From a virus (Duplodnaviria > Caudoviricetes): a stretch of 64,000 nt of DNA. Within the stretch, counting starts at the first letter, position 1, and the number at the start of each line of letters is the position of its first letter. Under the pieces are notes generated by a model. The model did no database searches. It was not told the origin of the DNA and worked only from the letters and a program-made list of their open reading frames with translations. This document shows positions 28,497-31,827 of the stretch, piece after piece. Where the stretch lies: IMG/VR virus record IMGVR_UViG_3300029798_000001. One strand, 5' to 3'. The translations under genes were made by a program, and so were the position numbers.

Positions 28497-29375
28497 ATGG
28501 ACGACCGCATCACAATCAACAAACTTGAATTTTATATTACTAATGTATGTAATTTAACCTGCTCTAACTGTAACAGATATAATAACTATAAATTTGCTGG
28601 TTGGCAAAATTATGATGATTATGCTGAAATTATTCAACGGTGGTCTAAAAAAATCAATGTAGTTAAAGCAATGATCCTAGGCGGCGAGCCGCTGCTTAAT
28701 CCCAGTATTAACAAATGGATCGAGGGTATTCGCACCACATGGCCCGATGGATACTCGCCAGAAATTATTACCAATGGTACTCGTCTTGATTTAGTTGACG
28801 GACTATACGATACTTGCCGTAAACATGGTTCCTGGGTAGCAGTAAGCGTACATCGAGACGCTGATATTGCACCTCTTACTGCTCGAATTAGAAATTTTTT
28901 AACACCACCAATACAAGAAGGTCCAGCCCTGCTGTCAAACACAAATTCAGATTATCAATTCATCGATTCCAACTTTGTTCAGGTTCATATATGGAAAAAT
29001 TTTGATTTTCTACAAAATAATATCATTGAGCGACCAGATGGTACTCGCACACTATGGAAAAGTGATCCGGCGGTAGCACATGCTATTTGCCCCCAAGTTC
29101 TGCATAAAAATTATCATTTTATCAATGGTAAAATTTATAAATGCGGACCGGCACCATTGATGGCCGAATTCGATCAACAATATCCGTTCGATATTTCAGA
29201 CGAAGATCGAGACATAATCCATACAGATCCCGGATTGAGTATTGACGAGTTTGATGAGCATGGCGAAGAATTTTTCAAAAACATCGATAATCCAATTGCG
29301 CATTGTAAATTTTGCCCAGACACATTTGGATGGCATCCAATTGAATTTAGCAATATTAAGCCAAATAAAATTTGA
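28497..29375 (+). CDS. Radical SAM protein with C-terminal Cys cluster
   Basis: CNLTCSNC, LGGEPLL, IITNG; C-terminal CP...KIYKC...CKFC. Confidence 0.88.
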   Translation: MDDRITINKLEFYITNVCNLTCSNCNRYNNYKFAGWQNYDDYAEIIQRWSKKINVVKAMILGGEPLLNPSINKWIEGIRTTWPDGYSPEIITNGTRLDLVDGLYDTCRKHGSWVAVSVHRDADIAPLTARIRNFLTPPIQEGPALLSNTNSDYQFIDSNFVQVHIWKNFDFLQNNIIERPDGTRTLWKSDPAVAHAICPQVLHKNYHFINGKIYKCGPAPLMAEFDQQYPFDISDEDRDIIHTDPGLSIDEFDEHGEEFFKNIDNPIAHCKFCPDTFGWHPIEFSNIKPNKI

Positions 29376-29425: not shown

Positions 29426-29752
29426 ATGAAAAAAATTCTATTTGTTTTTCTATTAAGCATTGCTTCTTTGGCTCATGCTGATCGTTGGCGCCACGGTAGT
29501 GGACAATACTACTACCATCCCAGCTACGGTTGGGTAGCCCCTGCAATTATCGGAGGAGCAATTGGGTACAGCATGGCACGCCCGTATTATTATCCCCCAG
29601 CACCATATTACTATATACCTCAACCGATTGTAATTCAACAACAGCCAACTTATATGCAACAACCTTATCCGGCTGTTACAGGATATTATCAGGAAACTAT
29701 TACAGATGCTAACTGCAATTGTTTAAGAACAGTATTGGTTCCTAACCAATGA
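29426..29752 (+). CDS. Secreted Tyr/Pro/Gln-rich protein
   Basis: Signal peptide MKKILFVFLLSIASLAHA; GGAIG segment; C-terminal CNC. Confidence 0.65.
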   Translation: MKKILFVFLLSIASLAHADRWRHGSGQYYYHPSYGWVAPAIIGGAIGYSMARPYYYPPAPYYYIPQPIVIQQQPTYMQQPYPAVTGYYQETITDANCNCLRTVLVPNQ

Positions 29753-29905: not shown

Positions 29906-31300
29906 ATGGCATATTCAGATGCGGTGCTGAAACATTATGAAAATCCGTCTAATGTAGGCAGAATGGACCCGGCTGACGCTGATGTAGGCACAGGACTTGT
30001 GGGAGCTCCGGCATGCGGAGATGTTTTGCGGTTACAAATCAAAGTTGAAGATGGAATTATCACAGATGCAAAATTTAAGACATACGGCTGTTTGACCAGT
30101 AATGCTCCTGTTAATACTCCGACCTGTATTAAAAAAATAAAAGATTTAAAAATTGGTGATACGGTGCTGGCATGGAATGGTGAACTTATTGTCAATCAAA
30201 AAATTCGTGATATAATTAAACATTCAGTTGATATAAAAGATTTGTTGATAATTACTTTTCAGAGAGAAACAAGTAGAAACAATATTAACCCAGGTACTTT
30301 TTCTATTATTTGTACCAAAGAACATATATTCTGGAACGCTGATAATAAACCAATAGAAGCACAGCAATTACAGGCAGGCCAAGAATTGTACGAGATAACT
30401 GAGAATGAATTACGGATCCTTACCAATAATCGTCACCGAACAGAACTTAAACAAAAAAATAGTATAAGAATGAAAAAGTGGAATAAAGAATTTGATCACT
30501 CTTTATTACCTCAAAATCAACCTGGGTATGTGTGTAAAGATTTAAAAACTAAAAAGCAACGAGCAAGTACCGCTTCGATTAAAAACTGGCAAGATCCTGA
30601 TTATATTAAAAAATGGCAACAAGGAATGTCGCAACGAGACTGGTCTAAACCCACCAGCATTGAAAAAAAATATATTGATTTATTTGAAAAAAATAATGTA
30701 GCGGCAAGATGGAGTGCTGGCAAAATATGGATCCAGACAGACGTAGGACCAGCAAGTCCAGATTTTATTGTTCCTGGTAAGAAAAAATGTATAGAAGTTT
30801 ATACAAAGAAAATGCCAAAATTTATGCAAGATAGATCTGAAGAATCTAATTATGTACAAACTCGTAAAGAACAACTTGCAACAGCAGGATATGATTCATT
30901 ATTTTTGGCAATAGAAGATATTGCACACTCATTGCCAGAAGTACAAAATTTTATACATAATGGCATGAAAATTGTTGATATCTCGCCGATCTCTCATCTT
31001 AACCAGTTGCGTGGATGTGAGCGTGATGGTAATTTGGTTGTGGTATACGATTTAAAATTAGATGAAGGTGCTCATGTATATTTTACAAACAGAGTCGGCT
31101 CGCATAATTGTGGGTCGGCGATCGCAAGTAGTTCGCTCGTCACGGAGTGGGTCAAGGGTAAAACGCTGGAGCAAGCTGGCGCAATTAAGAATGCTGAAAT
31201 TGCAGAGGAACTCGCGCTCCCGCCGGTTAAGATTCATTGTAGTATCCTTGCGGAAGACGCTATTAAGGCCGCGATAGCGGACTACCAAAGTAAACACTAA
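29906..31300 (+). CDS. iscU: IscU Fe-S scaffold precursor interrupted by an intein (124 aa after splicing)
   Basis: HYENP.NVG, GAPACGDV, FKTYG|CGSAIASSS, LPPVKIHCSILAEDA. Confidence 0.92.
   Translation: MAYSDAVLKHYENPSNVGRMDPADADVGTGLVGAPACGDVLRLQIKVEDGIITDAKFKTYGCLTSNAPVNTPTCIKKIKDLKIGDTVLAWNGELIVNQKIRDIIKHSVDIKDLLIITFQRETSRNNINPGTFSIICTKEHIFWNADNKPIEAQQLQAGQELYEITENELRILTNNRHRTELKQKNSIRMKKWNKEFDHSLLPQNQPGYVCKDLKTKKQRASTASIKNWQDPDYIKKWQQGMSQRDWSKPTSIEKKYIDLFEKNNVAARWSAGKIWIQTDVGPASPDFIVPGKKKCIEVYTKKMPKFMQDRSEESNYVQTRKEQLATAGYDSLFLAIEDIAHSLPEVQNFIHNGMKIVDISPISHLNQLRGCERDGNLVVVYDLKLDEGAHVYFTNRVGSHNCGSAIASSSLVTEWVKGKTLEQAGAIKNAEIAEELALPPVKIHCSILAEDAIKAAIADYQSKH
30089..31108 (+). mobile_element. 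340-aa intein with an embedded Vsr/DUF559-like endonuclease
   Basis: N-terminal CLTSNAPV, block B CTKEH, block F VYDLKL, terminal SHN followed by Cys; central PTSIEK...SPDF...CIEV...AGY. Confidence 0.88.
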
Positions 31301-31312
31301 AGAGAGTAAAGT

Positions 31313-31507
31313 ATGCCACAAACTAATTTTGATGTAAAAGTGCAACCGTGGTGCCCTATAGAGAATACGCCATACGAAGGCTATTGTATTGGAGAATTTC
31401 CTACCGTAGAAAAACGACCAATTGGCCCGTGCGACCATTTTGAAACTTGTTTAAAGTTTAAAAATACAATGACTAGTTACGAGCAAGAAAATACAACCCA
31501 TCACTAA
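31313..31507 (+). CDS. Small Cys-containing hypothetical protein
   Basis: ORF track; four Cys residues. Confidence 0.45.
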   Translation: MPQTNFDVKVQPWCPIENTPYEGYCIGEFPTVEKRPIGPCDHFETCLKFKNTMTSYEQENTTHH

Positions 31508-31827
31508 TGATTACCGTAACTGATACAGCCGCTAAGAAAATTAAATCTAATTTAGATAAACGCGGGTCCGGTATAGGCATTCGCATTGGTGTAAGAACCA
31601 CCGGGTGTTCGGGACTTGCTTATGTGTTAGAATATGTAGACAGGGTTAATGGTGATGACACAGTATTTGACAGCAACGATGTGCAAGTAATTGTTGATGG
31701 TAAAAGTTTACCCATATTAGGTAATCTTGAGGTAGCCTATGTCCGTCAAGGACTCAACGAAGGCTTTGAGTTTAACAATCCCCAGGCCAAGGATCATTGT
31801 GGTTGCGGGGAAAGTTTTAGAATATAA
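31507..31827 (+). CDS. iscA: IscA/HesB A-type Fe-S carrier
   Basis: ITVTDTAA, TTGCSGLAY, CGCGESF. Confidence 0.92.
   Translation: MITVTDTAAKKIKSNLDKRGSGIGIRIGVRTTGCSGLAYVLEYVDRVNGDDTVFDSNDVQVIVDGKSLPILGNLEVAYVRQGLNEGFEFNNPQAKDHCGCGESFRI

Follow-up and report, generated by a model that had tools for sequence, protein, structure and literature searches.

The stretch of DNA analysed here (hereafter the window) comprises 64,000 nucleotides of the IMG/VR virus record IMGVR_UViG_3300029798_000001 (Duplodnaviria; Caudoviricetes), and its iscU gene, a host-derived auxiliary gene for an iron–sulfur (Fe-S) scaffold protein, is interrupted by an insert of 340 codons. The best explanation, to which we assign a probability of about 0.82, is that this insert is a selfish, currently mobile class-1 intein, a passenger that is tolerated by IscU because its splicing would restore the exact protein. 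The explanation is built on the anatomy of the interrupted gene, on its conservation, on the fold of the insert, on a presence/absence polymorphism between related phages and on the signature of a lateral transfer, all of which are observed.

The IscU precursor of 464 residues is encoded by a single open reading frame (ORF) of the window (29906-31300, + strand). The Pfam family NifU_N matches this ORF in two separated stretches (E 8e-47), and the TIGR01999 IscU model, with the insert left in place, still scores 198 bits, above its cutoff of 192.4. The insert corresponds to precursor residues 62-401 (nucleotides 30089-31108). An earlier interpretation made from the letters alone (the sequence-only reading) had been headed by the range 29906-31300; this range is that of the ORF, the intein proper being the shorter interval. 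When the splice junctions are marked by arrows, the upstream junction reads ..TAC GGC↓TGT TTG ACC.., with TGT at 30089-30091, and the downstream junction reads ..CAT AAT↓TGT GGG TCG.., with AAT at 31106-31108 and TGT at 31109-31111. This gives FKTYG↓CLTSN...VGSHN↓CGSAIASSS at the protein level, in agreement with the intein in a phage IscU, and with the junctions, that the sequence-only reading had described. The parts of the gene are as follows.

29906-30088, + strand: N-extein of IscU, residues 1-61, the N-terminal stretch of the NifU_N and TIGR01999 matches, with the ligand Cys37 (TGC, 30014-30016) and Asp39, ending in ..FKTYG

30089-30400, + strand: N-terminal Hint lobe of the predicted intein, intein residues 1-104, with block A (Cys1, TGT at 30089-30091) and block B (T76-K-E-H79 at 30314-30325)

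30401-30988, + strand: central domain of the predicted intein, residues 105-300, with helical repeats, putatively NUMOD-like and DNA-binding, followed by a Vsr-like nuclease core at about 30638-30970

30989-31108, + strand: C-terminal Hint lobe of the predicted intein, residues 301-340, with block F (VVVYDLKL, including D321) and block G (..VGSH339-N340, AAT at 31106-31108)

31109-31300, + strand: C-extein of IscU, 63 residues and stop, the C-terminal stretch of the NifU_N and TIGR01999 matches, with Cys+1 (TGT, 31109-31111) and the stop codon at 31298-31300

Precise excision of the insert joins the 61 residues of the N-extein to the 63 residues of the C-extein, and the resulting protein of 124 residues is colinear with bacterial IscU, being 83% identical to the Robbsia protein and 77% identical to that of Vibrio cholerae. 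Cys37, Asp39, the junction cysteine, LPPVK and the His-Cys pair are all retained in it, and the spliced sequence shows the hallmarks of the IscU family, with its three cysteine ligands, with Asp39 and His105, and with LPPVK as the chaperone motif. The C-extein contributes Cys+1 as the second cluster ligand, LPPVK, and the His-Cys pair with the third ligand. The alignment with bacterial IscU thus confirms that splicing at these junctions would give a 124-residue IscU with all three cysteine ligands, as had been claimed. The junction cysteine is residue 62 of the window IscU, in which one loop is shorter by one residue, and it shares an alignment column with the cysteine of YG-C-GSAIASSS in bacterial IscUs, a column that we take to be Cys63 in the numbering of Escherichia coli IscU. 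This numbering rests on the colinearity with the Vibrio and Robbsia proteins and on the known E. coli IscU, because a blastn search of E. coli genomes with the C-extein returned no match. The proposal that the +1 nucleophile of the intein is itself an Fe-S ligand cysteine is borne out by this column. Insertion directly before a conserved functional cysteine is a normal outcome for inteins, for which it is typical in view of nuclease targeting and of the requirement for a +1 nucleophile.

The same insert is found at the same junction, with the +1 cysteine kept, in all 30 of the 30 full-length intein-bearing IMG/VR alleles, and therefore the junction pattern in the window is not a product of chance. 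When 21 non-identical alleles are compared, with identities down to 61%, C1, T76, H79, D321, H329, H339 and N340 are invariant. The ratio of nonsynonymous to synonymous polymorphism (pN/pS) among intein-bearing alleles is 0.22 for the N-terminal Hint lobe, about 0.2 for both Hint lobes, 0.20 for the C-extein and 0.31 for the central domain; the value for the N-extein is disregarded, since an indel in the loop ahead of the junction makes it too high. Purifying selection of this strength (pN/pS 0.2-0.3) on exteins, Hint lobes and nuclease argues that IscU is still needed and must be restored, and since the IscU exteins stay under purifying selection in insert-bearing genes, removal of the insert at the protein level is indicated; from these sequence data we infer that the precursor undergoes protein splicing. 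This is also in agreement with the AlphaFold model of the intein, which has a mean predicted local distance difference test (pLDDT) score of 80.6, rising to about 90 in the Hint strands, and which is matched by Foldseek with a probability of 1.00 to solved inteins and BIL domains (gp41-1, DnaB, RecA, VMA and PI-PfuI). The TIGR01443 model of intein C-termini matches the C-terminal lobe weakly. Judged from its residues and its predicted fold, the insert is a class-1 intein of the Hint superfamily.

Searches of Pfam, NCBIfam and PHROGs returned nothing useful for the intein or for its centre alone, and a fold search was therefore needed for the central domain. When residues 105-300 are modelled alone (pLDDT 84), the top Foldseek match is the catalytic domain of I-Bth0305I (Protein Data Bank entry 3R3P; TM score 0.69 by target), and VIA-align gives a Z score of 9.9 for the same entry (94 residues aligned, root mean square deviation 3.0), compared with 9.0 for the DUF559 protein 3HRL and 8.6 for Vsr (1CW0). 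A profile of the central domain matches Vsr and 3HRL weakly, and these matches extend across the T-x-x-E-K ... P-D-F ... I-E-V motifs. In the window these motifs take the form T-S-x-E-K, P224-D225-F226 (30758-30766) and I-E236-V, the E of the last being encoded at 30794-30796; the acidic residues, namely the E of TSxEK, the D of PDF and an extra E in IEV, are conserved, and no variation is seen among the intein alleles in the E, PDF and IEV motifs. Free-standing homologs of the nuclease carry NUMOD3 and DUF559/Vsr signatures, with NUMOD3 recognized by Pfam in the metagenomic proteins P0154 and P0185; the helical repeats of the window (..KNWQDPDYIKKWQQG..) have no Pfam match. By the fold of the model, the central domain is a Vsr-like homing endonuclease of the I-Bth0305I or 'EDxHD' type.

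The distribution of the intein is wide. More than 1000 metagenomic proteins (clusters at 90% identity) match at E <= 0.001, and the 120 matches listed are IscU proteins of about 351-486 residues, lengths which are compatible with this insert. Exactly the same 464-residue protein is encoded on 22 contigs, which come from several samples. A search of IMG/VR for IscU with an insertion at YG↓CG, as proposed with the sequence-only reading, found 38 intein-bearing loci, compared with 36 intein-less loci with which they share synteny. The homologous loci are on viral contigs, and contigs bearing the gene reach 353 kb. The closest relative of the window, when the flanking genes are considered, is the locus L042, in which the neighbouring proteins share 90-98% identity with those of the window; its iscU is uninterrupted, and when L042 is aligned with the window, the alignment is broken precisely at 30089 and 31108. 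Because L042 and many other phages carry the empty site at the same locus, the intein is not required by the phage. A different relationship is found for the locus L002, which shares one tract with the window.

30017-31284, + strand: tract shared with L002 at 98.3% DNA identity (blastn), covering the intein, 72 nucleotides of the N-extein and about 176 nucleotides of the C-extein

Outside this tract the DNA identity between L002 and the window falls to 86% on the upstream side, to 70% across iscA and to 70-77% in the DNA farther downstream, and the proteins encoded around it are 67% (iscA), 52% (nuclease) and 69% (upstream protein) identical. A tract of this kind is what recent homing, accompanied by co-conversion of flanking sequence, would be expected to leave behind, and these sequence comparisons are consistent with such an event.

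Other stages of a homing cycle appear to be preserved as well. The metagenomic protein P0125 (294 residues) and the locus L266 (3001-3846) have mini-inteins at the same site, from which the endonuclease is cleanly deleted (..YEIT-[gap]-ITHNG/..IISISP..), and these may represent the degenerate stage of the cycle. Much more divergent inteins, 32-41% identical, occupy the same IscU site. In the metagenomic protein P0131 (461 residues), a mini-intein precedes the first ligand cysteine (GAPA↓C...HN↓CGDVM) and a nuclease-deleted intein is present at the second; this double intein implies that inteins can occupy at least two sites in phage-type IscU, each of them at a ligand cysteine. The same family of inteins with a Vsr-like nuclease is found in other metagenome genes, encoding radical SAM proteins (P0140, P0143), NrdD (P0149), PolB (P0162, P0175) and a transglutaminase-like protein (P0137). 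The window's own radical SAM gene (28497-29375), a short way upstream of iscU, is intein-free. Among cellular genomes (one per prokaryote species), the IscU matches are intein-less except in two short contigs of metagenome-assembled genomes (MAGs), L265 (JBDNIA010000044.1, 2.1 kb, 'Crocinitomicaceae MAG') and L266 (JANZYY010000012.1, 24 kb, 'Fischerella MAG'), both of which we suspect to be phage contigs binned by mistake. A DNA search of GenBank phages with the gene gave two short extein matches only. The IscU intein was not found in the deposited phage genomes of the searched collection; the protein search returned only intein-less phage IscU, the nearest being that of the Kyanoviridae (T4-like) phage C48C1, with 72% identity. 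Taken as sequence patterns, the transfer tract and the distribution indicate an intein that appears actively mobile.

In the mechanism that we propose, which is the textbook one and has the best support, splicing would begin with an N-S acyl shift at Cys1 (precursor residue 62), after which Cys+1 (residue 402) would take over the N-extein on its thiol; Asn340 would then cyclise, and an S-N shift would complete the reaction. The ligation would join Gly61 to the ligand cysteine, generating the 124-residue IscU and the free intein. The freed intein is predicted to cut intein-less iscU alleles of co-infecting related phages, and recombinational repair would then copy the intein, together with some of the flanking extein, into the empty site.

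Some observations weigh against a mobile intein with a working nuclease, and they concern both its recent history and its active site. On the extein tree (124 columns) the presence and absence of the intein requires a minimum of 6 changes, of which well-supported branches force only 1; this tree is poorly resolved, so gains and losses are not countable on it, and the identities of flanking genes have been used instead. The synonymous sites of the intein-bearing alleles are near saturation (pS about 0.75), which implies that most copies are old and that they could be largely vertically inherited. The composite EDxHD catalytic motif has been defined for Vsr-like homing endonucleases (PMC3239194), and its histidine is not evident in the window, which reads IEVYTKKMPKF when compared with ..DG..WH in classical members; the classical histidine is present, for example, in P0208 (..DYWH), and it is replaced in the window copy and in many free-standing homologs. 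Lacking this histidine, the window nuclease is of uncertain chemistry, and the window copy could be inactive. From these points a splicing-competent intein with a dead endonuclease can be constructed, vertically inherited and kept because its imprecise loss would destroy IscU, and the lack of any Pfam, NCBIfam or PHROGs match for the central domain would fit with it. This account is nevertheless very unlikely in our judgement, since the central domain is under purifying selection, its E, PDF and IEV motifs do not vary, and the length of the intein is exactly 340 residues in 27 of 31 alleles. Moreover, a motif without the histidine is common to many free-standing homologs, which suggests a working variant of the active site, and the 98.3% tract in the otherwise diverged L002 argues for a very recent transfer. 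That the insertion is non-functional altogether, being a pseudogene or a non-splicing domain of the Hint/BIL type, could be suggested by the Pfam Hint scores, which are below the gathering thresholds for the window copy; with a frame open for 464 codons, all class-1 catalytic residues invariant, strong purifying selection on the exteins of the intein-bearing alleles and more than 1000 intact relatives, this has hardly any probability.

The sequence-only reading had also suggested that splicing could be gated by redox or metal state. In such an adaptive scheme, oxidation, a disulfide bridge between Cys1 and Cys+1, or a bound metal would withhold the phage IscU, and the intein would act as a redox or metal sensor of the phage during infection. 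Chemically such gating is plausible, both nucleophiles being thiols and one of them a cluster ligand. Cys1 and Cys+1 are both invariant, the precursor residues Cys37 and Cys105 could bind metal together with them, an engineered redox trap of the DnaE intein (3NZM) is among the matches to the Hint fold, and the intein is old and under purifying selection. The intein in SufB from Mycobacterium tuberculosis is reportedly sensitive to oxidative and nitrosative stress, and zinc or copper inhibits several inteins. However, uninterrupted iscU occurs at the same locus in many phages of the same family, including L042, which makes gating dispensable, and the distribution, the L002 transfer tract and the nuclease-deleted derivatives together make up the standard life cycle of a homing intein. 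Sensitivity of a cysteine intein to oxidants would be a by-product and no proof of use; the gating idea draws solely on the general chemistry of Cys1/Cys+1 inteins. Adaptive conditional splicing is therefore an unlikely explanation. We are equally doubtful about its most explicit form, in which the four precursor cysteines (Cys37, Cys1, Cys+1 and Cys105) would bind metal or form a disulfide, mature IscU would appear only in a reduced cell free of loose metal, and the intein-keeping lineages would time the Fe-S supply for radical SAM enzymes and ribonucleotide reductase. The same doubt covers a broader version, in which at least three selfish elements would independently have converged on the ligand-cysteine codons of phage iscU, namely one intein at Cys63, another at Cys37 and, at Gly38, a nuclease-plus-hop cassette (described below), whose interplay would shape the expression of the scaffold.

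The selfish, mobile class-1 intein can be compared with three groups of known elements. The inteins of M. tuberculosis SufB (Pps1) and of archaeal SufB are similar in that they are class-1 inteins with Cys1 and Cys+1, have a homing-endonuclease domain and interrupt a core Fe-S assembly protein, such that splicing is required before the scaffold can work. They differ in that the host protein is SufB of the SUF system, in contrast to IscU of the ISC system here, and in that it is encoded by an essential cellular gene, in contrast to a phage auxiliary gene; in the phage IscU the +1 cysteine is itself a cluster ligand. Furthermore, redox sensitivity has been reported for the SufB intein, whereas the IscU intein is known here from its sequence. 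The nuclease of the SufB intein, in contrast to that of the IscU intein, is not known to be Vsr-like.

When the phage inteins of DNA-metabolism genes (gp41-1 helicase, NrdJ-1, NrdA, DNA polymerase and terminase) are used as the comparison set, the Hint domain modelled for the IscU intein is structurally closest to small phage and metagenomic inteins, gp41-1 (6QAZ/6RIZ) and NrdJ-1 (8UBS), and the sequence relatives of the intein are in NrdD, PolB and radical SAM genes. The host protein is different, however, being a metabolic auxiliary Fe-S scaffold and not an enzyme of replication or packaging. Vsr-like 'EDxHD' homing endonucleases have been described in ocean metagenomes, in what are termed 'fractured genes' (Dassa 2009, PMC2677866; Taylor 2011, PMC3239194). 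I-Bth0305I and its EDxHD relatives have the same nuclease fold as the IscU intein and the same apparent two-part plan, in which N-terminal NUMOD-type repeats, putative in the IscU intein, are followed by a C-terminal Vsr-like core, and they are likewise tied to inteins and phages in aquatic metagenomes. The IscU nuclease differs from them in lying inside one contiguous intein and ORF, not between the halves of a split intein or in a group I intron, and the composite His/Asp of EDxHD is not evident in it.

The sequence-only reading had suggested that an IscU intein might be new. This holds insofar as no published IscU intein was found, but the element itself is very common in public metagenomes. 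No description of an intein in IscU or NifU was found in the searchable literature, in text searches which did not surface Dassa 2009 or Taylor 2011 either, and the main text of Novikova 2016 has no mention of IscU or NifU. Particular to the intein of the window are its phage host, its site at the second ligand, the little-studied kind of Vsr-like nuclease within a contiguous intein and an unusually clear homing signature. IscU would thereby be added to the host proteins of inteins, with a natural series that is unusually complete (full intein, mini-intein and empty site) and with a +1 nucleophile that is an Fe-S ligand. Such a series would be convenient for testing whether all inteins are merely selfish or whether some are put to use as environmental switches, a question of long standing, and it could yield small splicing domains and a nuclease specificity that are both new. 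It also matters for annotation, as the genes are labelled only 'NifU-like' and their lengths are misleading.

A separate insert is found in the iscU genes of related phages. In L001, L002, L041 and L034, 8 or 10 nucleotides are inserted directly after the codons of Cys37 and Gly38 (L002:3541-3563, L001:4106-4128, L041:4106-4128 and L034:4109-4133; also in L076-L258), with the layout Gly-stop-(0-4 nucleotides)-Gly followed by the usual Asp-Val. Two scans of IMG/VR gave at least 66 iscU genes with such an insert, the sizes being 6, 7, 8, 9 or 10 nucleotides, with all three frames represented, and pN/pS is low on either side of it (0.06/0.42 and 0.07/0.90), both parts of the gene being under purifying selection. 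The occurrence of all these sizes excludes plain frameshifting, and readthrough is rejected since the majority of the inserts do not preserve the frame. Neither a split gene nor re-initiation at Met41 is accepted, because there are 7-nucleotide variants without an in-frame start and because position 41 is Leu, not Met, in ten insert-bearing alleles. The pattern of the sequences is probably best explained by a short hop of the ribosome over the stop, between the two Gly codons. Directly upstream of iscU, and overlapping its start, there is an ORF of 205 residues (L001:3409-4026 and L041:3409-4026, + strand), which has NUMOD-like repeats, a DH...N...N motif and a weak PHROG match to HNH nucleases; it is present in 43 of the 61 hop-bearing loci, compared with 1 of the 134 hop-less loci. 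The combination of this ORF and the Gly38 insert resembles the nuclease-plus-bypass cassette of T4 mobA and gene 60. In L002, the tract of high identity with the window starts (30017) exactly at the end of the cassette, such that two mobile elements abut within iscU. In the window itself, the insert is absent at 30014-30022, and so is the 205-residue ORF upstream.

The genes of the window are almost all on one strand, and among their products are helicases of the UvsW and DnaB types, NrdA/NrdB, an ATP-dependent ligase, GroEL and a tailspike-like protein. In the iscU module, which is conserved, the radical SAM gene is followed by small ORFs, iscU, the iscA-like gene, a PD-(D/E)XK nuclease gene, the tailspike-like gene and nrdA.

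31507-31827, + strand: gene of an IscA-type Fe-S carrier (Pfam Fe-S_biosyn, E 8e-21), the downstream partner of iscU, conserved in this phage family and syntenic in most related loci

Among the small ORFs, the one at 29426-29752 (+ strand) has no family match; it has a start resembling a signal peptide and a repeat rich in Tyr and Pro (..YYYPPAPYYYIPQP..), and several related loci have a conserved counterpart of it upstream of iscU.

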